Sequence record: NC_050154.1
Source of the DNA: Escherichia phage D6
Strand: one strand, 5' to 3'
Length of the DNA stretch: 64,000 nt
The position numbers were made by a program, and so were the translations under genes. The stretch's first letter is position 1. Every line of letters begins with the position of its first letter. Shown here in pieces: positions 539 through 48,817 of this stretch. Below the pieces are notes generated by a model. The model saw only the letters and a program-made list of their open reading frames with translations. It had not been told where the DNA came from and searched no databases.

Positions 539-577
539 AATACACTCCAACTATAGAGAAAGCTGTGAGTGTAAAAA

Positions 578-590
578 GAGTGTGATTTAT
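578..590 (-). promoter_or_regulatory. candidate late-promoter box (AAATCACA core, read on minus strand)
   Basis: Member of a motif family found upstream of several minus-strand late operons; here upstream of the truncated gene. Confidence 0.4.
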
Positions 591-4319: not shown

Positions 4320-4359
4320 ACCCCTCCAGAAATAACATCTAATGCGCCACTAACTTAGT

Positions 4360-4374
4360 CAGTTTGTTATTTCC
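4360..4374 (-). promoter_or_regulatory. candidate late-promoter box (GGAAATAACAAACTG on minus strand)
   Basis: One mismatch to the box seen at 10964 and 44949; upstream of the holin-like gene. Confidence 0.45.
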
Positions 4375-4424
4375 TTACAGGACATCTTCTAGAATCTCCC
4401 CCCTTAACATACAAGGGGGGACAT

Positions 4425-10917: not shown

Positions 10918-10963
10918 ACGAACATAGCTCCTTCATAAGCAATGAACCAAAGGAGAGTATGCT

Positions 10964-10978
10964 CAGTTTGTGATTTCC
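10964..10978 (-). promoter_or_regulatory. candidate late-promoter box (GGAAATCACAAACTG on minus strand)
   Basis: About 45 bp upstream of the R-like start, followed by a CATACT -10-like hexamer. Confidence 0.5.
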
Positions 10979-16600: not shown

Positions 16601-17457
16601 TTTTTCCCCTTTTCTACCCATTCTTTAAGAGATTCTGCTTTACCTGTGATCTCTTTAGTTATGTCGTACATGCCTCGAGCCGCCATCCATAACGGCCCAC
16701 CAGCACCGACACCAGCTGCATTTGTTAAAGACTCTTCACTGGAAGACTGATTGCCATCTACCCCCATAATGGAACCTAGCTTTCTGAGAAAGCCAGCTTG
16801 TAATTTTGCGTCGGCTTTACGTGCGTTCTGCAATTCTTTTTTTCTGGCTATATCCTCATTGCTTTTTTGGGATACAAAACGTCCATTACTATCCCGCAGC
16901 GGGCCTTTTAGACTTTGGGGGGATTGTGGTTCAAGAGGGGCTGAATTAGCCGCTACCGGTATAAAACCGTCCGATTTTCGGATGGTCTGACGTGATTGCA
17001 CGGAGCGAACACTTTCTGGTGTGTTCGTTGCAACGATAGCGCGGTCCACGGTTTGGTTTATCGGTGCCCTTTCCTTTTTAGCAGGGAGACGTTTTTTATA
17101 TGGGTTAGTTTGGGCATCTCTAACGCTATCAGATGTACTTTGCTCGTAGTCTTTACGCCTGCGTGATAGTCTGTTGCTAACTCTGCCTTGCTTTTCGTCC
17201 TGTTGAGTTATGGTGCCTACCCCAGAAAGAATGGCGTCTTTTACCTCAGCAAGAGCTTTAAGTTCGTTTGTGCTCGCCTCCTGAATAGCGTCAATTATTG
17301 CGATACGGTCTTTATTCTCTTTCAAAATAACCTCTCTTTTACCAGCGCGATCAACGTTTCCCGGCTTGAGCTTTGTATTTTTCTTCCAGGGCTTTTGACA
17401 TATGGAGTGCTCGCCATTGCGGTAATTGTTCAACGTCGCTAACGGGCTGATATCCAT
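13675..17457 (-). CDS. large structural/injection protein, Sit-like (tape-measure-like)
   Basis: 1260 aa, low-complexity Ala/Gly/Ser/Lys-rich, with a globular domain near residues 630-760. Confidence 0.65.
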   Translation of the reverse strand: MDISPLATLNNYRNGEHSICQKPWKKNTKLKPGNVDRAGKREVILKENKDRIAIIDAIQEASTNELKALAEVKDAILSGVGTITQQDEKQGRVSNRLSRRRKDYEQSTSDSVRDAQTNPYKKRLPAKKERAPINQTVDRAIVATNTPESVRSVQSRQTIRKSDGFIPVAANSAPLEPQSPQSLKGPLRDSNGRFVSQKSNEDIARKKELQNARKADAKLQAGFLRKLGSIMGVDGNQSSSEESLTNAAGVGAGGPLWMAARGMYDITKEITGKAESLKEWVEKGKKETSTSKAISPVITYPAAVNSQKATSAKAFNNAVETKSAQAVEEQTKILQTNDNKIIDGLENVSDEIVKLRKSVSSGNKFGLSDLWKNRASRRNKINIGDQTGKNKRNKSKRKGRNLGKKALSVGEKVAAGSAAAGTGVGAAKVVKNEISKPKDVSTISDTSKGIAKETKNTAKAVKSAGVVAEDATIKTGEAIAKKKTESVALKSAAKIGVKSAASTAARAVPIIGSLAMAGYDAIDGYTDTEAQKAAFGLSDDDAVSEQQKTAYATANVLDMGGLVSGATNLIGKGISALGFERAGEKLQNFDTGDIARGVNGAVDITKSVFGSLKDTFLSTDENTKQVKKAVEDGTKKTVDAIHSLGEQLQGGRDGEDGVGEHGYTSPAEFNAPTSNTIAADLNIGGSNAKNRNYRNNNLGNLVFANQEGATLEAPNAKGEQRFARFNTPEEGIRALANQVSSYYNGTSAAAGYQKLQTVSSIISKWAPPKENNTNQYIDNVSKYLGVSPNEKIDVSNPEVMTQLVRAIATKEGGNPAVNNEFIKNALGAFNTNTGRWEGQFSDETLARINKIQKENGGQLIARDSQYSVGRKIKYVNGKSPAQPVLNAVPTATQQPIEVAQYAQAVKKPQKTGNQSQPINPENVDVNTGSPSSLLERLIAINDSGVGNLFGGAATSLAGTSLGLIKDFASATSFGSISSLSEKAKGMDQALTEKISSLTGKSFGFQKASQVTDIRDALQKRPKAERDMPSVDLLSGVSSASESEKIPVNSRGIPVYDNGYKVIDGEDKGVLGSLFDSSLTGLKRISSAVLPAIGDNVSRLIGGVDGTGIVNDLVYQATGQNSTIARAISPLTRSAGSWLNNGIQQTADSIRGISNEANNAIFGSASAVQEPFLAMPPQLPTVTDLARSGIRQPLTTDTINNDPAMLKALDNICSILNDLLNVNKNNTKGDPDKVVKTSQPQPRPRASTTINDPSLDALLED

Positions 17458-18293: not shown

Positions 18294-18339
18294 TTATTCC
18301 TCCGAAAAGCAGGTATCTGTTCATTTTCCAGAGGATAGG

Positions 18340-18355
18340 GAGTGTGTGATTTGCG
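18340..18355 (-). promoter_or_regulatory. candidate late-promoter box (CGCAAATCACACACTC on minus strand)
   Basis: Upstream of the pmgB-like start; same AAATCACA core. Confidence 0.45.
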
Positions 18356-18398: not shown

Positions 18399-18660
18399 TG
18401 AGGGTGATTTTTACACCTTAAGTGACGCTACTCACATATCCACAGAGTATTTTTATAAACCTTTTTCCATTTTTAATCCTTTTTAGATCCTTTTTAGGCG
18501 TCGCTGGAGCCAGTAGTGGCGCGGGCTGTAGAGGAGGCTGGTGTAAGATTTGCCCTCAATTAAATACGATCGGTGTAAGATTTGCCCTCAAAAGGTGTAA
18601 GATTTGCCCTCAAAAGGTGTAGTAATTGCCCTCAAAGTGATGTAAAAATTGCCCTCACCA
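18399..18660. other. origin-like region: inverted iteron, DnaA-box-like TATCCACAG (~18437), AT-rich stretch, five direct iterons
   Basis: Read directly; classic iteron-plasmid origin layout upstream of the rep gene. Confidence 0.65.
18540..18657 (+). repeat. iteron array, 5 direct copies of GGTGTAAGATTTGCCCTCA (last two degenerate), mostly 22-23 bp spacing
   Basis: Copies begin near 18540, 18572, 18594, 18616, 18639. Confidence 0.85.
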
Positions 18661-18681
18661 TTTGAAGGATCACACAGGGTT

Positions 18682-19437
18682 ATGAACAGAGCGGAATTAA
18701 CAGCAAAAGCCGTCAGCCTGATTGAGTCAGCGACACCTATTAGTCGTAGTTTGGCACAAGCCAATGAGATCACGGAGGCTGCTTATCACCTGACTCGCGA
18801 CCAAAAGCGACTGTTGTTTATTGTGGTGGGAAGACTTCGCTATGCTTCTAAGGATGGCGTTCTTGGTTCAGGTGCCTGTGAGTTGACGGTCAACGAATAT
18901 GCAGAGATGTATAATTTGCCCTCTGCTGAAGCCAGCAAGGATATTCGTAAGGCCATTTCAGGTCTTAGCGAGAAGAAAGTTACGATATATAACCCTGATG
19001 AATCGACCGAATCAGAAGACAGTTATGAGTCTTATCCTTGGATGATTAAGGATGCCTATTCACCACGGCGCGGGACTTACATTATTCATCTTAATCCATA
19101 TCTCATGCCGTTTTTTACTCTGCTTGATAAGAGATTCACAAGGCTGAATTTTACCGAAGTATCTCGCCTTACAAATCCTTATTCTATGCGGCTTTATGAG
19201 TCCTTATGCCAGTACAGGAAGGATGATGGAAGCGGCTTTGCCATACTTGGCGTCGAATGGATGCGGGAGCGTTATGGGTTACCAAAAAGCTATCAGCGGT
19301 ATGCCGAATTTAAGAGAAGTTTTTTAACGAAGGCTGTAGCAGAGATTGAAAAAAATACAAAAATGAAAATAGTCTTCTCAGAGGTGACGGAAGGCGGCAA
19401 AGTTACCAGGATAAAATTTACCTATCAGCAGTCTTAA
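18682..19437 (+). CDS. iteron-binding replication initiator, Rep_3-like
   Basis: ANEITEAAYHLTRDQKRLLFIVVGRL N-terminal signature; flanked by iterons; start moved to the ATG at 18682 because the track start lies inside an iteron. Confidence 0.8.
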   Translation: MNRAELTAKAVSLIESATPISRSLAQANEITEAAYHLTRDQKRLLFIVVGRLRYASKDGVLGSGACELTVNEYAEMYNLPSAEASKDIRKAISGLSEKKVTIYNPDESTESEDSYESYPWMIKDAYSPRRGTYIIHLNPYLMPFFTLLDKRFTRLNFTEVSRLTNPYSMRLYESLCQYRKDDGSGFAILGVEWMRERYGLPKSYQRYAEFKRSFLTKAVAEIEKNTKMKIVFSEVTEGGKVTRIKFTYQQS

Positions 19438-19770
19438 GGGCAATTTTTACACCCTTCTCAAGGTGTAGAATTTGCCCTTAACGATCGGCAATTGAGGGCA
19501 ATTTTTACATCTTAATTGCATGTATCTTGTTATTAGCAAGTTGTGTTTTTATATAACGTATTGATATATAAGGGTTATGTAAAAATCACCCTCAACCAAT
19601 ATCGTGCGTATCGTGCATTCTTATTGCGCTTTTTTATTATCATTCACTGTGTTAACTGATTGATATTATTGAAATGTGTAAAGAATGCCTTCATTACAGA
19701 TGAATTGATGATGTAAAAAATGCCCTCAAAATTGCGCTACCTTCCCTACCCGCTATCGTTGAGGGCGTGG
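19437..19770. repeat. downstream iteron-like copies in both orientations within AT-rich DNA (inc-type control region)
   Basis: AGGGCAATTTTTACACC, GGTGTAGAATTTGCCCTTA, TGAGGGCAATTTTTACATC, GATGTAAAAAATGCCCTCA. Confidence 0.6.
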
Positions 19771-26915: not shown

Positions 26916-26971
26916 GGTTAAGCCCTAAATTCGGGCGCGGCGTGAAGGTTCTTTTGACGGGCTAACAATAC

Positions 26972-26987
26972 CTACTTTGTGATTTAG
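26972..26987 (-). promoter_or_regulatory. candidate late-promoter box (CTAAATCACAAAGTAG on minus strand)
   Basis: Upstream of the capsid-like gene, followed by TATTGT. Confidence 0.45.
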
Positions 26988-27044: not shown

Positions 27045-27067
27045 TTGGTTTTCTAACACAAATCATT
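27045..27067 (+). promoter_or_regulatory. candidate C1-type operator (TTTCTAACACAAA)
   Basis: Member of a recurring TGTGTTAGAAA family; directly upstream of the ATG at 27074. Confidence 0.5.
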
Positions 27068-28623: not shown

Positions 28624-29430
28624 CTATGGTTCCTTTTTGGTGTTCTTTTGGAGCGCATCGATAACGCCTTGTGGCATGATTAAACTGATTGCCGGACTCA
28701 TTACTGCATCATCCAGTAGAGAACCAGTTAACGTGATGGCGACAGCGTTCTCTAAACCTTTGGTTGCCTGAGTGGTTGACGTTTTAATGCGACCTGTAAG
28801 GGCTACGACACTCTCACTTGCTGAGTTAATTTCGGAGAGTAAAGCTTCGGCGGCTGTCACTGCTTCCCGTAAAGCATCAATTTCATCCTGAGTAATGACT
28901 GGAGCCTGAGCGCCCCCAGCACCACCCTGTCCACCATTGCTATCACCACCACCAGCACTTCCGGCAGCTTCAATTTTTGCGTTAATGGCGTTCATGGCGG
29001 TTTTCAGAGCATCAAGTTTTAGCGCCGTCAATGCGTCCGTTAGAGATTGCGGAATGGAAACATTCCCCATTCCCTCAACAAGGGCGAAAGCAGGTATGGG
29101 GGTCAGCTCGTTACCTTTTGCGTAGCATTCCCAGCCAATCTTCATCTGTAACAGCTCTGATGGCTTGGTGTATGGGGAAAGAGAATCAGCCAGTAATGAA
29201 GACGCTTTGCTGGCCTCATTGAGCTGTTCAGAAAAGCCAAGCAATTGAGTAGTCCAGGCCGAAACAGAATCAGGATAGGTTTTATCGGCGTGAACTATTC
29301 CCTGTATGGCGCTGGCGAGCGATGAGGCTTTTACAGAAGCTGCTCGGCTTATGGTTATAGATTCTGGTGTAGAGATACCGGCATCTGACAGAATTTTGAA
29401 GGCTTTAACTTCACCTATTGAATCAAGCAT
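28624..29430 (-). CDS. hypothetical structural protein
   Basis: Start moved to MLDSIG; its ATG overlaps the TAA of the upstream gene. Confidence 0.5.
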   Translation of the reverse strand: MLDSIGEVKAFKILSDAGISTPESITISRAASVKASSLASAIQGIVHADKTYPDSVSAWTTQLLGFSEQLNEASKASSLLADSLSPYTKPSELLQMKIGWECYAKGNELTPIPAFALVEGMGNVSIPQSLTDALTALKLDALKTAMNAINAKIEAAGSAGGGDSNGGQGGAGGAQAPVITQDEIDALREAVTAAEALLSEINSASESVVALTGRIKTSTTQATKGLENAVAITLTGSLLDDAVMSPAISLIMPQGVIDALQKNTKKEP

Positions 29431-29714
29431 TATGCAACCTGAAAAATATCCTCGCCGTTGGCGATAACAGAACCACAAGAAAGCAGATCGCCTACACAGA
29501 CAACTCCCTTTCCACCTATCGAAAACCATGCTCGCGTCGATACAGCTGCCCCTGGATGTGCACTGTTACCGTCAGTGTGACTGGGAAACATGGCACCATC
29601 TACAACAACTGGCTTACCGTTAACGGTGAACCAGGGAACGGTTTCAGCTACCAGTCGCGGCGGAAATCCTCCGTGACCAGAACAAAGGGTGTCGCTGGTG
29701 GCTATTGCGCTCAT
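29430..29714 (-). CDS. PAAR-like spike-tip protein
   Basis: 94 aa with Gly/Cys pattern (CSGHGG, VNGKPVVVDGA, VCVGDLLSCGSVI). Confidence 0.55.
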   Translation of the reverse strand: MSAIATSDTLCSGHGGFPPRLVAETVPWFTVNGKPVVVDGAMFPSHTDGNSAHPGAAVSTRAWFSIGGKGVVCVGDLLSCGSVIANGEDIFQVA

Positions 29715-29789
29715 TCTTCACCTCCTGGTTATCCTTCTATTGTCATCACTTTGTTATTTCGTCATTCAAACGGAGAGTTAAATTTCGGA

Positions 29790-31420: not shown

Positions 31421-31575
31421 CTTTCGTGTTAAATAGGATGCAATATAAGGTGTATTTGGTCTGATTGATGTTATACTTTGCCAAACATTCATGACTCCAT
31501 TATAGAGCCTGTCCCGCATCAAAAAGGCTCTTATCTGGAACCGTTTTGATACCAAAATCACACCGAGGAACGGAT

Positions 31576-32217
31576 ATGATTATATTGGTAGTCAGCCAAA
31601 AAGGTGGCTGTGGAAAATCAACCACAAGCGTAAACATCTGTGCGGAGCTTGCCCGCGAAAATAAGGATGTAGTGTTACTAGATGCAGACAAGCAAGGAAC
31701 AGCTGCCCGCTGGGCAGCTGACCGTAACACGGCAGAGGTTTCTCCTGTAATTCATTGTGTCCAGAAGTTTGGTAATATTCGAGAAACACTTCTCGATCTG
31801 GATAAGCGTTATGAATTTGTAGTTGTTGATACAGCCGGGCGCGATAGCAAAGAGATGCGTACAGGCATAACCGCTGCAGATATTGTGTTGGTCCCATTCA
31901 GACCATCTCAACCAGATTTAGACACGCTGGCACACTTTGTTGAAGTGTTTGAAGAGGCTTTGGACCTGATGCCTAATCCTAGCATCAAGGCGTTCGCAGT
32001 CTTAACAATGGCCCCATCCAATCCGGTTGTGAATGAAACCAATGAGGCCAAAGAGTACCTGGCTGAATATCCGCAACTGAAGTTGCTGAAAACCATCATT
32101 CGTGATCGTAAGGTTTACCGCGATTGCATGGCTGAAGGGAAGGGCGTTGTTGAGATGGACAACGGGAAAGCTAAAGGTGAAATCCAGATGTTGGTTAAGG
32201 AGTTATTAAGTGATTAA
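31576..32217 (+). CDS. small Walker-type partition ATPase (ParA/ParF-like, type Ib)
   Basis: deviant Walker A VVSQKGGCGKST; about 213 aa; GAGGAA RBS. Confidence 0.85.
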   Translation: MIILVVSQKGGCGKSTTSVNICAELARENKDVVLLDADKQGTAARWAADRNTAEVSPVIHCVQKFGNIRETLLDLDKRYEFVVVDTAGRDSKEMRTGITAADIVLVPFRPSQPDLDTLAHFVEVFEEALDLMPNPSIKAFAVLTMAPSNPVVNETNEAKEYLAEYPQLKLLKTIIRDRKVYRDCMAEGKGVVEMDNGKAKGEIQMLVKELLSD

Positions 32218-37656: not shown

Positions 37657-38633
37657 TTGTTCGGCACTCCCAATATCATTCGTGTTGTGTAGCCTACGCG
37701 GTCTTCAAAGTGCGCAACATTTTTTACTATCAGCTTACGGGGCATTGATTCATCAATGCGGTTTTCCTGGTCATAGCGGTATACGATAATCTCTATCACC
37801 ATCCCCGGTTTTATATCAGGATTGCCTGCGACTTCTATATCCATTTTGGGGACGAGAGACAGCTGCATATTGCGAAGAGTTTCCATATCAGAGTCGGATA
37901 TATAACGCACTGGGAGTGAGCTATCGCCATATTCGACGTAGCCATCGGTCATGGAATACCCAACAAAACGATATTGATTCTTTGCTGTTGTCGCATGTTC
38001 CTGTTGGAGTAGGCGCATTTTGGACAAAGTGTATTCTGCTTTAGGGTTATTCCCCTCGTAGGTAAATGATGGCGTTTGCTTCATCAGATCAGCCAGGGTG
38101 TAAAAGTTAAATTCCCCCCGGCATACCCAACATAATGCACCTTTGTCTCGCGCTATCTCCGAAAGCATTTTTGACGGTTTGTCACCGGCATTCAGATGAT
38201 ATGTAACTGCGCGTTTTAGCACGCTGCTGGTAATTTTAAGCTTGCCGGAATATGCCTTGAATATAGCGTCTGGTGTTTTGTTGGTATGTAAATTTGTGCG
38301 CGGGGAGGGGATCTTAAACCTGCGCACGTCTTCACTGACAGCAATAACGGTAACAACATCACCAGCCAGCATTGCAGACGTAACAAAGAAATCTGTTTTA
38401 AAAGTGCCTGCATTACCGTTTGGATCGCCCATTTCAGCCACCAGCGATGCACCGTATTTGGCTTTCCAGTCATCAATTACGGTGCCGGTAGCGTCATGAA
38501 TTTCCAGTTTTAGCAAAGGGGCTTTGAGGCTGGTTTTTTCTACATATACTGCGGTAAAAATCCAGTCTCGTGGCACTTTGTTATCGTTAATGAGCACTGA
38601 CTGTAGAAAATATTGTTGTAACTCCTGGGCCAC
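37653..38633 (-). CDS. hypothetical protein
   Basis: 326-aa ORF coupled to neighbours. Confidence 0.5.
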   Translation of the reverse strand: MAQELQQYFLQSVLINDNKVPRDWIFTAVYVEKTSLKAPLLKLEIHDATGTVIDDWKAKYGASLVAEMGDPNGNAGTFKTDFFVTSAMLAGDVVTVIAVSEDVRRFKIPSPRTNLHTNKTPDAIFKAYSGKLKITSSVLKRAVTYHLNAGDKPSKMLSEIARDKGALCWVCRGEFNFYTLADLMKQTPSFTYEGNNPKAEYTLSKMRLLQQEHATTAKNQYRFVGYSMTDGYVEYGDSSLPVRYISDSDMETLRNMQLSLVPKMDIEVAGNPDIKPGMVIEIIVYRYDQENRIDESMPRKLIVKNVAHFEDRVGYTTRMILGVPNK

Positions 38634-38636
38634 TTA

Positions 38637-39404
38637 TCACCCCATAGATATCGAGGTTTCGGTAATAATACGTTTTGCGTCCAACTCCCATGCTGTGATC
38701 ACGTCTGCAATCACACTTATCGGCGCTTGTGTGGCATAAATACGCTCTTCTCCAATTGGTGCTGAAACATCCGTAAAGCCGACTTCTTTGGCATCCTGTA
38801 TCGAGCAAATCAGCGGGACCGGGACACGAACAAGGTGAGTGGTTGCTTCAAATTGTGTACCTGTCATCAGGCGAAGCCGTGCGCCCAGCGAATTACACAT
38901 CAGACTCATGGTCGCTTTATCAGTTGCCATTAACGTAACGTCATACGTCAGAATAGCCTGGGTGTATTCCAGTTCTGCTAAAGGCATTCCGGTATCCGGT
39001 TCGCAAAAACTGGCTACTTTTTTGCGGTCAATCTGCTGATCATCGTTGATATAATTGATATCCATAGTGCGTGAGATATTGACCAGGGGGAGAGCATCCC
39101 GGTTAATGTTCTGGTTTTCAGGTTTTCTCCCTTGCCCGGCATTTGCGCGACGAACTGCTTTAAGAAACTCGATCGCATTGTCGAAACGGGCCACATAAAC
39201 ACGCTCTGCTGGTGGACGATTCAGGAATGACGCAAAGCGTTTTTCTTCCGGCGCGGGGGCCACCAGTAAGATATCAGAAAAAATGTTGCTGATTAGCGTC
39301 GCAAACGCGTTATCCACGTTTTCAAAGCCCGTGGTCTGGAATTTTCCTGTGCGTGAGGTTTGCCATTCACCTGTTCGCGCCAGGAGGGTTTTATTTGAAG
39401 TCAT
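38637..39404 (-). CDS. hypothetical protein
   Basis: 255-aa ORF. Confidence 0.5.
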   Translation of the reverse strand: MTSNKTLLARTGEWQTSRTGKFQTTGFENVDNAFATLISNIFSDILLVAPAPEEKRFASFLNRPPAERVYVARFDNAIEFLKAVRRANAGQGRKPENQNINRDALPLVNISRTMDINYINDDQQIDRKKVASFCEPDTGMPLAELEYTQAILTYDVTLMATDKATMSLMCNSLGARLRLMTGTQFEATTHLVRVPVPLICSIQDAKEVGFTDVSAPIGEERIYATQAPISVIADVITAWELDAKRIITETSISMG

Positions 39405-40204: not shown

Positions 40205-40354
40205 AGGTCGATCTGTCAGGTATCGAAAGGAAGATTTTCGGGAGATTGTGATTTTGGATGAAGGAGGGGGAATTCATAAAATGCACTTGCGCACAGTGCA
40301 ACGGTGCGCTATAGTTATGGCATTCGGTAATCATCACGGAGGATCAAATGACTA

Positions 40355-43822: not shown

Positions 43823-44015
43823 AACAAAGCCTCTCAGTCATAACCTGGGGGAAACTGTATGCAGGGTGTGAAATGCGAGAAACAGACAGGCCACCAGTTC
43901 AGGGGGATGTGGTTCATAAATCCCCTCACTGGTGACAAGTGACTTTCATTAATCTTTATGCGTGGGCCAGCTTCATTTGCTGGCATTAGATTAAAAATTA
44001 AACGGAGTGAATGAC

Positions 44016-44150
44016 ATGGATGTTATCTTCGAATTATTAATGCTAATTGATCTGTTTATGAACGCTTCATTGACCACGCAAATACTGGCGTCAATATTTT
44101 TGTTACTCTTCTACCTGGTATTGAGGGAGTTAACAAAGCTACTAATGTGA
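44016..44150 (+). CDS. small hydrophobic peptide (44 aa)
   Basis: Own translation MDVIFELLMLIDLFMNASLTTQILASIFLLLFYLVLRELTKLLM with GGAG RBS; not in ORF track. Confidence 0.35.
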   Translation: MDVIFELLMLIDLFMNASLTTQILASIFLLLFYLVLRELTKLLM

Positions 44151-44822: not shown

Positions 44823-44856
44823 GACGGATACAAAAAAAGGCCGCACATGGCGGCCT
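44823..44856 (-). terminator. intrinsic-terminator-like hairpin in the 5' leader of the 44804 gene
   Basis: Minus strand: AGGCCGCCATGTGCGGCCT followed by TTTTTTT, between the late box and the RBS. Confidence 0.5.
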
Positions 44857-44948
44857 GCTTTGGCGTTATGACTCCCTACCGCGCTTCGGCTGAAAGTTAA
44901 TCGTCAAAAGAACCTTCAACGGGAGCCGTTAGCGCGATGGATTATGTG

Positions 44949-44963
44949 CAGTTTGTGATTTCC
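44949..44963 (-). promoter_or_regulatory. candidate late-promoter box (GGAAATCACAAACTG on minus strand)
   Basis: Identical 15-mer to the one at 10964; followed by CATAAT. Confidence 0.5.
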
Positions 44964-45149
44964 AAAATAGTGTCAACCACTTTTTGTGGATTTTATTTTT
45001 TGACAGAAATTTGGCCTAAATCATGTTGATTTGGCTGATTATTTTTATAACATAAAAGTCATTTTGATTGCATGAAGGACGGTGCAGTGAAGTTAATGGT
45101 TTTAGGGACCGCGCTCGCGGCTAAGATGGTAAGGTATGGAGTTAATGAA

Positions 45150-45983
45150 ATGTTTTTTATAAAAAATGGAAAAAGATTTTCCTCAACAATACTAGCTACT
45201 GTTGTTGCTCTTTTTGTTCCCACACTCACCTTTGCTTATGATTTTAGCAAAATTGACTGCAATTCCCCTAAAACTAGGCAGATGTTAATCGATGATTATA
45301 ATGAACTGCTGAAGGACGAGCAGGAAGCAATCTCTGTAATTGATGCTTATAATCAGATCAATGAGATAAGAGAAAACAATAAGCTCCAATGCCTGGGAAC
45401 GTATGAATTCTCAGATGGAAGTGCGCTTAGGGTTAGATATAAGTTATATTTAAATAGCCTCGGCACACCCATATATGAATTTGCTCCAGTTGAGGAATTA
45501 ACGCAAGATGATGTAAGCGCATCTATTCATAATTCCCCTGCAACTCCTGCAAGCATGGCTGGACATGATAAAAAAAATAATGGTGAAACGTATGCCTGTA
45601 AGGTGGCTGTAACTTACAAGGGGGAGCGTTCTAACTATATGGGGGATTCCGGAACATGGGATCGTGTGATTACTGACTATGGCACTTATTTTTCATGGGA
45701 TTTGCCACGCGGAAACCGAGGCAACAGCACAGGTCAGGATGCTTTTAGTGGCATGGACGAATCAAAGCCTGTATTAGAAAATCAGCTAGTGAGAAAGGAA
45801 ACTGAAAAAGATGGTAGCGTGGTTGATGAATTTAGGACTGATGTAAGTTATGGGGAAAAACAACCAGTTCATAAGTTTGTATATGCTCGTAGAATAAAAC
45901 CTACAGGCATGAGAGAGTATTATGTTACGGATTTAACAGACAAGCGGGCGTTTATGTTTCTGAATTGTCAGAGAGATTCGTGA
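45150..45983 (+). CDS. hypothetical secreted/periplasmic protein
   Basis: Signal peptide MFFIKNGKRFSSTILATVVALFVPTLTFA; moderately AT-rich; start moved to the RBS-supported ATG. Confidence 0.6.
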   Translation: MFFIKNGKRFSSTILATVVALFVPTLTFAYDFSKIDCNSPKTRQMLIDDYNELLKDEQEAISVIDAYNQINEIRENNKLQCLGTYEFSDGSALRVRYKLYLNSLGTPIYEFAPVEELTQDDVSASIHNSPATPASMAGHDKKNNGETYACKVAVTYKGERSNYMGDSGTWDRVITDYGTYFSWDLPRGNRGNSTGQDAFSGMDESKPVLENQLVRKETEKDGSVVDEFRTDVSYGEKQPVHKFVYARRIKPTGMREYYVTDLTDKRAFMFLNCQRDS

Positions 45984-48019: not shown

Positions 48020-48079
48020 ATTGGCAGCCTCCTTTTGCTAATTTAAGGAGCTACCGCGTGAGGTCTCAATCTCAATGGC

Positions 48080-48155
48080 GGTAGCACTGGCTGGGTTGAG
48101 ACTACCGGCGCAAAAGGGAACCGGCCTGCCTTTCGGCAGCCCAGCCAGCACTACC
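48080..48155 (-). ncRNA. candidate c4-type antisense regulatory RNA (~76 nt)
   Basis: 16-bp closing stem with two G-U pairs enclosing a GAAA-looped hairpin; a loop GUCUCAA is complementary to two UUGAGAC sites, one just before the icd-like RBS. Confidence 0.4.
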
Positions 48156-48206
48156 ATTGATCTTGGAGCTATACGCTACGTATGGCTGTGCGATGGCATG
48201 ACACAA

Positions 48207-48228
48207 AAAAAGACGCTTTCGGCGTCTG
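48207..48228 (-). terminator. intrinsic terminator upstream of the c4-like RNA
   Basis: Minus strand GACGCCGAAAGCGTC followed by TTTTTTT. Confidence 0.6.
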
Positions 48229-48817
48229 TGTCGCCTTTTGCATTATCCGGGGTCTCAATCCCGGCACCCGTTTTTCTAAGGTGCCGTAGAAATATACCCC
48301 ACGATAATGCCAGGGCGCAACAGTCAGTATTTTATGCTTTGGCGGATTTCTTCCGGGCTTGCTTGCAGGCGTAGGCCATTGCTTTAGCTTTCACTTCATC
48401 CAGCTTCCCGGTGATCACTTCTTTTCCGAGAGTGACAAACCAGTCATAGCAACCGCCAGTGATGTTCTGGATTTGAAAGTTGAGGTAGCGAACTGTCATT
48501 TTGACCCCCCCAGCGCGAGTAAAGAATGCAGATTATCGCGTGAGTGGCGGACAACGAGTGATGGGAAAAGACAGTAGCTGTTCATAGTGTAGTGACTCCT
48601 TGCTTTCGGAGCCGCCATCGACTGTTCCACGGTCTGGTGGCGGCGCAATAAAGGCTGGAACACCGTGAGTCAACGGGGGCTTTTCAGCCACCTATATTGC
48701 ACCGCCATAGGTATAGCGGCGGCAATAATACGAAAAACTAAACAGTTTGTCTCAAAAAGTTGACCGGTGTGCCAATCGGTAGTGAATGTACATCGGAGAA
48801 ATTTACAATTCAACTTA

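Follow-up and report, generated by a model that had tools for sequence, protein, structure and literature searches.

Predicted late promoters with a lineage-specific Lpa-type box, and a conserved structured RNA upstream of mat, in D6-like plasmid prophages related to phage P1

Introduction

The Lpa protein of bacteriophage P1 is a sequence-specific DNA-binding activator that acts together with SspA of Escherichia coli (PMC1891329), and a conserved Lpa site is shared by the 11 late promoters of P1 (PMC10695390). We have analysed a stretch of 64,000 nucleotides of Escherichia phage D6 (NC_050154.1), hereafter the window, which represents about 64 kb of a D6-like plasmid prophage related to P1, and we report on a short box that recurs upstream of its late operons and very probably marks promoters of the Lpa type, as well as on a structured RNA that would be transcribed from one of them, ahead of the gene mat. 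Comparable arrangements are found in T4 (MotA), Mu (Mor/C) and P2 and P4 (Ogr and Delta, respectively), in which a phage DNA-binding activator replaces recognition of the -35 element and in this way times the late or middle genes. We know of no sigma appropriation factor in P1-like phages.

This class of late promoter being known from P1, what appears to be new here is the box of the D6 lineage, the geometry common to it and the box of P1, and the fact that it changes along with the Lpa clade. In the open-access literature, which did not cover the D6 genome paper, we found no article that links D6 with Lpa or late promoters, or that presents the motif in that context. The conserved mat leader RNA and its complementarity to the capsid transcript were likewise not found in Rfam or in searchable papers.

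Results

A box at a fixed distance from a -10 hexamer

The minus strand at 10964-10978 reads GGAAATCACAAACTG, and the same 15-mer occurs again at 44949-44963. A preliminary description of the window, which had flagged the first of these copies, named eight variants of the box upstream of minus-strand late operons, each followed by a -10-like hexamer. All eight do exist, and what they have in common is tighter than had been described: a 12-nt box AAAT(C/A)ACA-NNN-T, a gap of 3 nt and a hexamer NANNNT (Table 1). The hexamer follows at this same gap at every one of the sites, position 2 being A and position 6 being T in 8/8; the first base is T in four, so that the hexamers agree less well than those of P1 with its consensus TAnAAT. 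The corresponding pattern AAATMACANNNTNNNNANNNT, which was refined after the sites had been inspected, matches the window eight times, precisely at the listed sites, all of them intergenic, on the minus strand and co-oriented with the late genes, as against 0.12 ± 0.33 matches (maximum 1) in dinucleotide shuffles of the window. Allowing one mismatch adds just two matches, each of them within a gene.

The same sites stand out when scored in other ways. A position weight matrix assigns them 19-28 bits (10-26 bits in leave-one-out scoring), the next best site in the 128 kb searched having 10.5 bits. In a blind count of 8-mers, the box core AAATCACA is among the top intergenic-enriched families, with 7 of its 13 copies lying in non-coding DNA, which makes up 9.8% of the window (p = 6e-5). 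Also, the degenerate core AAAT[CA]ACA has 17 copies in the window, and NANNNT is found at the fixed 7-nt spacing in exactly the eight that are intergenic. Chance or base composition as the source of the motif is ruled out by the shuffles together with the gap in weight-matrix scores.

Two other properties given in the preliminary description hold in part. The boxes were said to lie 25-100 bp upstream of genes, and indeed the distance between site and gene is 45-70 bp, the genes being of late type, with the exception of the mat copy, which is 157 bp upstream of ATG 44804. The absence of an obvious -35 is confirmed at seven of the eight sites, where the best matches to TTGACA at a spacing of 15-19 bp reach 2-4 of six positions; the sole exception is the capsid copy, with TTGACT 15 bp upstream of its -10.

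Table 1. Coordinates of the predicted late promoters, the mat leader RNA and the complementary segments. Positions refer to the window unless another genome is named; LP names are annotated P1 late promoters.
Feature	Position	Strand	Sequence or structure	Downstream gene or context	Counterparts
Predicted late promoter	568..588	-	box AAATCACACTCT 588-577; -10 TACACT 573-568	TTG start 538 of a gene cut by the window edge (ddrB position)	CP088384.1 at 51939
Predicted late promoter	4352..4372	-	box AAATAACAAACT; -10 TAAGTT	holin lydA (ATG 4319)	positional equivalent of LPdar; box variant AAATTACAGACT upstream of holin in E. hormaechei
Predicted late promoter	10956..10976	-	box AAATCACAAACT; -10 CATACT	between gene 16 and R (ATG 10917)	positional equivalent of LPs (between 16 and R); variant ATTTCACA before R in E. 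hormaechei
Predicted late promoter	18332..18352	-	box AAATCACACACT; -10 TATCCT	pmgB (TTG 18293), sit, pmgA, bplA, 16	equivalent of LPsit, displaced by repB insertion; E. hormaechei at 66782; Citrobacter at 16986
Predicted late promoter	26965..26985	-	box AAATCACAAAGT; -10 TATTGT	major capsid gene 23 (GTG 26915)	equivalent of LP23
Predicted late promoter	29739..29759	-	box AAATAACAAAGT; -10 GACAAT	PAAR-like upfC homologue (ATG 29714)	no late promoter annotated there in P1; Citrobacter at 38367, before PAAR gene
Predicted late promoter	40234..40254	-	box AAATCACAATCT; -10 GAAAAT	gene 7 homologue (start 40204/40192)	Citrobacter at 45977
Predicted late promoter	44941..44961	-	box AAATCACAAACT; -10 CATAAT	leader RNA and mat	equivalent of LPmat; variant ATTTCACA before mat in E. 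hormaechei
Possible weak late promoter	43854..43874	-	ATTTCACACCCT, GCA, TACAGT	gene 26 (ATG 43822), ~30 nt downstream	position of LP26
Conserved structured RNA (mat leader or small RNA)	44826..44934	-	outer stem around two hairpins, then intrinsic terminator	upstream of mat	
Antisense segment	44902..44918	-	UGAAGGUUCUUUUGACG	5' arm and loop of first leader-RNA hairpin	
Target segment	26943..26959	-	CGUCAAAAGAACCUUCA	~+1 to +17 of predicted capsid late transcript	
P1 leader RNA	P1 2703..2824	+	mat leader segment UGGAUCCCUUUUC		
P1 capsid-leader target	P1 58805..58817	-	capsid leader segment GAAAAGGGAUUCA		
JK004 leader RNA	JK004 39285..39404	-	mat leader segment UGGGACUCUUUUCA		
JK004 capsid leader			capsid leader segment UGAAAAGAGUUCCA		
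Contig L109 (lineage F) mat leader			mat leader segment GGAAUUUUUGAC		
Contig L109 (lineage F) capsid leader			capsid leader segment GUCAAAAAUUCC		

The element and its Lpa homologue

A megablast search with the window in a collection of deposited phages, which does not include D6 (MF356679), gave no close match. Over 8 kb, the window shares 98.8% identity with about a hundred non-mobilizable plasmids of ~92 kb from E. coli, Salmonella and Shigella, and its capsid promoter region is 99.8% identical to that of pYU39_89, which has been described as a D6-like plasmid prophage (PMC6799933). The gene order is that of P1, running through lydA-lydB-hdf-darA, cin and an invertible tail-fibre segment, R-S-U, 16-bplA-pmgA-sit-pmgB, 23-22-21 and onward, 26-25, 7-24-6-5 and mat. 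At the protein level the element is distant from P1, the capsid protein being 44% identical to P1 gp23 and Sit matching in the transglycosylase domain only.

In CP088384.1, a complete relative of which the window covers about two thirds, a late promoter activating protein is annotated at 29164-29556, directly upstream of pacA-pacB as in P1, and this position is ~4 kb past the right end of the window. The protein has 31% identity to P1 Lpa (E = 1e-16), a full-length match to Pfam PF25716 (BPP1_LPA; E = 5e-57) and a match to the PHROG family 'Lpa-like transcriptional activator'. In the plasmid of Enterobacter hormaechei, a box of the D6 type at 18642-18662 (+) stands before a gene whose annotation is type I toxin family protein and which lies just upstream of lpa-pacA-pacB. 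The lpa-pac region may accordingly be subject to late (auto)activation in that lineage. No counterpart of this toxin-gene box was found in the E. coli lineage.

Co-variation of box type and Lpa clade

In the P1 record, the 11 annotated late promoters consist of a 9-bp '-22 region', 4 nt and a -10, and their alignment gives the consensus ACAAGTGACTT-N4-TAnAAT. The distance from the start of the box to the -10 is 15 nt in these 11 promoters and in the window sites as well, and five of the eight window sites occupy positions of annotated P1 late promoters (Table 1). As to the sequence of the box, forward, reverse and shifted alignments were tried, and the D6 and P1 types are identical at 3 of 11 positions in register; a 6/8 match between AAATCACA and AAGTCACT requires the opposite strand and a 2-nt shift, for which reason we treat the two boxes as different. 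Moreover, AAGTNACTT occurs once in the window, at 43937-43945 (+), and at none of the eight sites.

We have compared box and Lpa in five complete genomes, namely CP088384.1, the E. hormaechei plasmid, a Citrobacter plasmid, P1 and the Cronobacter phage JK004. The matrix of the D6 type finds 11 sites in CP088384.1 and nine in the E. hormaechei plasmid, whose DNA is ~75% identical; in both plasmids these precede pmgB, darB, the portal gene, gene 26, lyz, R, mat and others. In P1 and JK004 it finds only 1-2, with one good match in P1 and none of note in JK004. Scored with the matrix of the P1 type, P1 and JK004 yield 10-11 sites, as against 0-1 for the D6-likes (one in CP088384.1). Outside the window, CP088384.1 has three further perfect sites, before the portal gene, a lysozyme-like gene and darB, the first of which parallels LPpro of P1 and the second, on the opposite strand, LPlyz. 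The box reads ACAAGTGACTT in P1 and JK004, and AAAnnACAnACy in the D6-like and Citrobacter elements. The Citrobacter dialect, AAA-n-(T/C)ACA-(G/A)AC-(T/C) followed after 3 nt by TAnnnT, stands before 11 late operons, including pacA, and the Lpa of this plasmid is 37% identical to the D6 type. The Lpa proteins divide into the same two clades as the boxes: those of the two D6-likes share 60% identity, a value that falls to 23-31% against P1 and JK004. The E. hormaechei and Citrobacter relatives have no box of the P1 type, yet encode Lpa. The type of box follows the Lpa clade across the five complete genomes, and this change, combined with the equal distance between box and -10, points to a re-specified dialect of one system.

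Each lineage also has one site in the dialect of the other. The window contains one perfect late promoter of the P1 type, ACAAGTGACTT-TCAT-TAATCT, at 43935-43955 (+), between gene 26 and mat, which points at a hydrophobic open reading frame of 44 amino acids (44016-44150, +; phrog_38362) that is unannotated in CP088384.1. This promoter is conserved in relatives even with its flanks and the reading frame replaced, and is absent from the Enterobacter and Citrobacter lineages. The reading frame was considered as a PmgL homologue and rejected. In P1, a perfect site of the D6 type is located at 31571-31591 (-) (AAATCACAAAGT ACA TACCGT). It precedes by 39 nt the gene lydC, which codes for a holin homologue and has no annotated promoter; the site could be due to chance, since ~0.1-0.5 such matches are expected per genome. 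More speculatively, such cross-dialect promoters, for a small membrane protein in the D6-like element and for lydC in P1, could allow each phage to sense the late activator of the other.

Alternative explanations for the box

The preliminary description had proposed activator-dependent late promoters of the class known for P1 Lpa, and the results bear this out: the boxes occupy late-operon positions, the -10 is fixed, seven of the eight sites have no usable -35, and the relatives encode a protein of the Lpa family. We thus consider it very likely that the boxes belong to Lpa-type late promoters written in a lineage-specific dialect, with binding, start sites and timing as predicted from the comparison of sequences. 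For the copy at 10956-10976, the promoter would drive the tail fibre genes R-S-U.

It would be most improbable that we are dealing with ordinary weak sigma-70 promoters or incidental A-rich sequence, the motif being shared through common descent of the intergenic regions. A nAnnnT hexamer is present at every site, the capsid copy does have its TTGACT at 15 bp, and the mat copy is preceded by TTGACA at 44971-44976 (-), which is conserved in the E. coli lineage; this element, however, is 24 nt upstream of the -10 and so too far for a normal -35. In fact, the intergenic regions of the eight sites have nothing in common beyond box and -10, and in alignments drawn from relatives in IMG/VR (20 distinct regions upstream of mat and 21 upstream of the capsid gene) box and -10 are kept while the poorly conserved flanks diverge. 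Plain sigma-70 promoters would leave unexplained the missing -35, the fixed geometry and the switch of box type with the Lpa clade. The box might instead be the operator of a protein other than Lpa, be it a repressor, Mat or a factor of the host, a reading that gains from the fact that it is not palindromic as the P1 Lpa site is, and from the conservation of a P1-type box in the same D6-like elements. Nevertheless we judge it improbable, given that the distance from the start of the box to the -10 is exactly 15 nt, just as in the P1 Lpa promoters, and that the E. hormaechei and Citrobacter relatives encode Lpa in the absence of any P1-type box. A better candidate for a C1-type operator is TGTGTTAGAAAA(n)nAAnTT, with six intergenic copies at 27058 (-), 36957 (+), 48821 (+), 49487 (-), 53579 (-) and 62789 (+), preceding early-type genes, among them ref, rdgC, a cre-like gene and the gene that diverges from the capsid gene; these are probably the C1-type repressor operators of the D6 lineage, unlike the operator of P1.

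A number of observations weigh against reading the boxes as Lpa-type promoters. The box is not an inverted repeat such as the AAGTnACTT of P1, so that the mode of binding may differ from that of P1 Lpa, and several of the -10 hexamers are poor (GAAAAT, GACAAT, TAAGTT). No box was found for pacA or for the equivalent of hot in the E. coli lineage. The lpa gene of this very molecule would lie outside the window, and its presence is deduced from relatives that are at least 98.8% identical. Finally, with a P1-type promoter conserved in the element, the resident Lpa may read one type of box or both.

A conserved structured RNA upstream of mat

The start of mat is ATG 44804 and not GTG 44846, so that the leader measures ~130 nt from promoter to ATG, of which ~110 nt constitute a structured RNA (Table 1). 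It closes with an intrinsic terminator ~30 nt before mat, whose stem at 44838-44856 has seven pairs (six of them GC) and is followed by TTTTTTT at 44831-44837. The leader is conserved far better than the adjoining DNA, even where Mat is only 77% identical, and in the alignment of relatives the changes within stems preserve pairing. A covariance model built from close relatives of the leader recovers the full-length RNA upstream of mat in every D6-related lineage examined, with E from 1e-30 to 1e-4. In the resulting alignment, which was fitted to the model, 91.4% of the cells are paired, as compared with 40-54% when the partners are slid by 1-3 columns, and 25 of the 38 pairs have changes on both sides; the covariation score of 0.443, against no more than 0.106 in the slid controls, is reached by 0 of 500 shuffles.

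Independent folds of single sequences, carried out on the leaders of the window, Citrobacter, P1 and JK004, gave one shared architecture, in which an outer stem encloses a hairpin with a large U-rich loop and a small second hairpin, and the terminator follows. The leaders of P1 and JK004 escape detection by the covariance model; their equivalence rests on position, on the independent folds and on the complementarity described below. RNAalifold, run on MAFFT alignments, returned no structure when P1 and JK004 were included, and the terminator only for the D6-related set. When the leader was compared with Rfam, no family gave E below 0.1 and the C4 model (RF01695) was not matched. A leader peptide was also considered and rejected, as the only open reading frame has 17 codons, a TTG start and no Shine-Dalgarno sequence, and five of its 17 residues vary between lineages.

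As to the promoter region of this leader, in P1 the -10 of LPmat is preceded at 19 nt by TTGACA, annotated as Pmat, and the Enterobacter lineage has TTGATA at 18 nt from the mat -10, with a putative operator just upstream. Taken with the TTGACA of the window, these elements indicate that transcription of the mat leader may have an early, repressor-controlled input too.

Complementarity between the mat leader and the capsid mRNA

When the genomes were searched with the leader by short-word BLAST, a single non-self match was obtained, the antisense segment at 44902-44918 being complementary to the target segment at 26943-26959 at 17 of 17 positions. The target starts 6 nt past the -10 of the capsid promoter and 28 nt before the capsid start codon. 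With G.U allowed, this is the best ungapped complementary run genome-wide in the E. coli plasmid, and the same holds for the orthologous pair in the Enterobacter plasmid. To extend the comparison, alignments of Mat and of the capsid protein were scanned against IMG/VR and the loci were paired by contig, giving 10 lineages. Throughout these, a segment ~44-46 nt upstream of the capsid start is complementary to one lying 104-118 nt upstream of the conserved N-terminus of Mat, the sequences of the two segments varying between lineages (Table 1 gives three further examples).

When the best runs between the capsid and mat leaders are set out as a 10 x 10 matrix, the sum over own-genome pairs is 290, as against 218 ± 14 for permuted pairs, and is reached by 0 of 20,000 permutations (p < 5e-5). 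Within the curated registers, several positions show 3-5 different standard pair types, and the cells of the paired spans that are not Watson-Crick comprise 22 G.U and 4 A.C, a ratio which favours pairing between RNAs over two copies of a protein-binding DNA site.

The preliminary description had proposed that a terminator-like hairpin in this leader adds a step of attenuation. The intrinsic terminator is present and conserved; what that proposal did not foresee is that the leader is as a whole a structured RNA with complementarity to the capsid leader. A conserved leader RNA combined with a co-evolving complementarity suggests a regulatory link between RNAs, instead of or besides simple attenuation. 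We rate the chance that the interaction of mat leader and capsid mRNA is functional as close to even, or slightly less. The rival reading is a purely cis-acting attenuator that would limit mat expression, with the complementarity reflecting two DNA sites of a co-evolving DNA-binding protein, which we find rather unlikely, albeit a serious contender. A strong terminator 30 nt before mat is what such an attenuator would have, two copies of one protein site would show compensatory changes just as well, and the capsid copy overlaps +1, the classic position of an operator. The energies of the duplex are unexceptional also: sampled free energies do not single out the capsid leader (z = -0.6 to -1.9). 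On the other hand, the predominance of G.U-compatible differences between the copies is not predicted by a DNA site, the mat-side segment in every case comprises the 5' arm plus the loop of a hairpin that covaries, the usual layout of an antisense RNA, and no alternative antiterminator fold was apparent in the minimum free energy folds of four lineages, a search that was not exhaustive. Besides the duplex energies, two further points count against a functional RNA pairing, namely that in P1 and JK004 the complementary run is only the second or third best genome-wide, and that the pairing and covariation counts of the leader depend on a model-fitted alignment.

As for the function of the pairing between these RNAs, the options are that a small RNA protects or activates the capsid mRNA, that it represses the capsid mRNA, or that the capsid mRNA titrates the mat leader. 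More broadly, we put forward as a tentative proposal, with somewhat more doubt than confidence, that a structurally conserved, so far undescribed RNA family upstream of mat across the P1 supercluster, in P1 concealed within the 5' part of mat as annotated, acts in trans, through pairing of a loop with the first ~17 nt of the gene 23 mRNA, and would be a late riboregulator coupling 'maturation control' to capsid synthesis.

The start of mat in P1

In P1 (AF234172), the entire leader, including the terminator AAGCCGCCGCUGGUGGCUUUUCUUUUUU, is contained between LPmat and an ATG at ~2827. This ATG aligns with the start of every other Mat, which suggests that the annotated start at 2716 is probably wrong. 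The open reading frame annotated from 2716 reads through the terminator hairpin, and its first ~37 codons are probably leader RNA.

Further features of the element

The weak candidate at 43854-43874 is not counted among the eight late promoters, because its 10 bits are at the level of noise; the variant ATTTCACA that it shows is nevertheless the one in use before R and mat in the Enterobacter relative. Two insertions interrupt operons that are continuous in P1. A toxin-antitoxin insertion splits the P1 operon 26-25-7-24-6-5, cutting gene 7 off from gene 26, and a repB replicon is inserted within what in P1 is one late operon (pmgC-tub / pmgB-sit). On both sides of repB (18649-19437) there are TTGAGGGCAAnTTTTACAcc repeats, at 18400-18650 and 19440-19760, which are presumably replication iterons.

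Directly before the start codon of cin (4425, +), at 4398-4420, there is a perfect GC hairpin, CCCCCCTTGTATGTTAAGGGGGG, within a divergent region of 105 bp that is shared with the late promoter of lydA. Rfam hits above the gathering score comprise the C4 antisense RNA at 48074-48161 (-), with 76 bits, and isrK at 48206-48284 (-), with 59 bits; being upstream of icd and an ant-like gene, they indicate that an immunity region of the immI type is present.

Discussion

A possible course of events is as follows. After induction, the Lpa homologue encoded next to pacA would bind the box at about -27 to -16 and, with host sigma-70 RNA polymerase and probably SspA, would start transcription ~7 nt past the -10. 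In this manner at least eight lysis, head and tail transcription units would be switched on in the window, and 11 in the complete relative. From the promoter at 44941-44961, a structured RNA of ~110 nt would be produced and stopped by the strong terminator before mat, and through its hairpin loop this RNA would most likely pair with the extreme 5' end of the capsid mRNA made from the promoter at 26965-26985.

If the boxes are what we take them for, they amount to a map of the late transcription units in D6-like plasmid prophages, elements of common occurrence among E. coli, Shigella and Salmonella. The Lpa system would have diverged into at least two DNA dialects with the same promoter geometry, a pair well suited to studying how an SspA-dependent activator changes its specificity, and one from which orthogonal late promoters could be taken. 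The leader RNA is to our mind the more interesting result of the two. Should its pairing be functional, the late programme of P1, a model phage for seventy years, would include a post-transcriptional control that has gone unnoticed, the start now annotated for P1 mat would have to be revised, and the 'maturation control' locus, obscure for so long, would be opened to direct tests.

Comparison with known systems

The closest described counterparts of the window sites are the late promoters that P1 Lpa (gp10) activates. Like these, the window sites combine a -10 with a conserved element 15 nt upstream that replaces the -35; they serve the same lysis, head and tail operons, five of the eight window sites and two in the complete relative being orthologous to P1 promoters; and in the complete relatives a protein of the Lpa family is encoded next to pacA. 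They differ in that the box, AAAT(C/A)ACAnnnT, is not palindromic, whereas P1 has the 9-bp inverted repeat AAGTnACTT, and in that Lpa is only 23-31% identical. There are, besides, extra promoters at upfC/PAAR, gene 7, the ddrB position and darB, and the E. coli lineage lacks a detectable LPpac. The middle promoters of T4 MotA and the promoters of Mu Mor/C and of P2 Ogr or P4 Delta differ in involving unrelated proteins and other positions and sequences of the box.

The mat leader finds its nearest likeness in the C4 antisense RNA of P1, which is also a small structured phage RNA, ended by a terminator, whose loops are complementary to an mRNA leader of its own phage; the mat leader may even have a second pairing block, as C4 has, GCGCGG with CCGCGC. 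In contrast to C4, it would come from a late promoter and not from an immunity promoter, its candidate target would be the capsid mRNA, at the 5' end, which is encoded at a distance of 15-56 kb, and it doubles as the 5' leader of mat.

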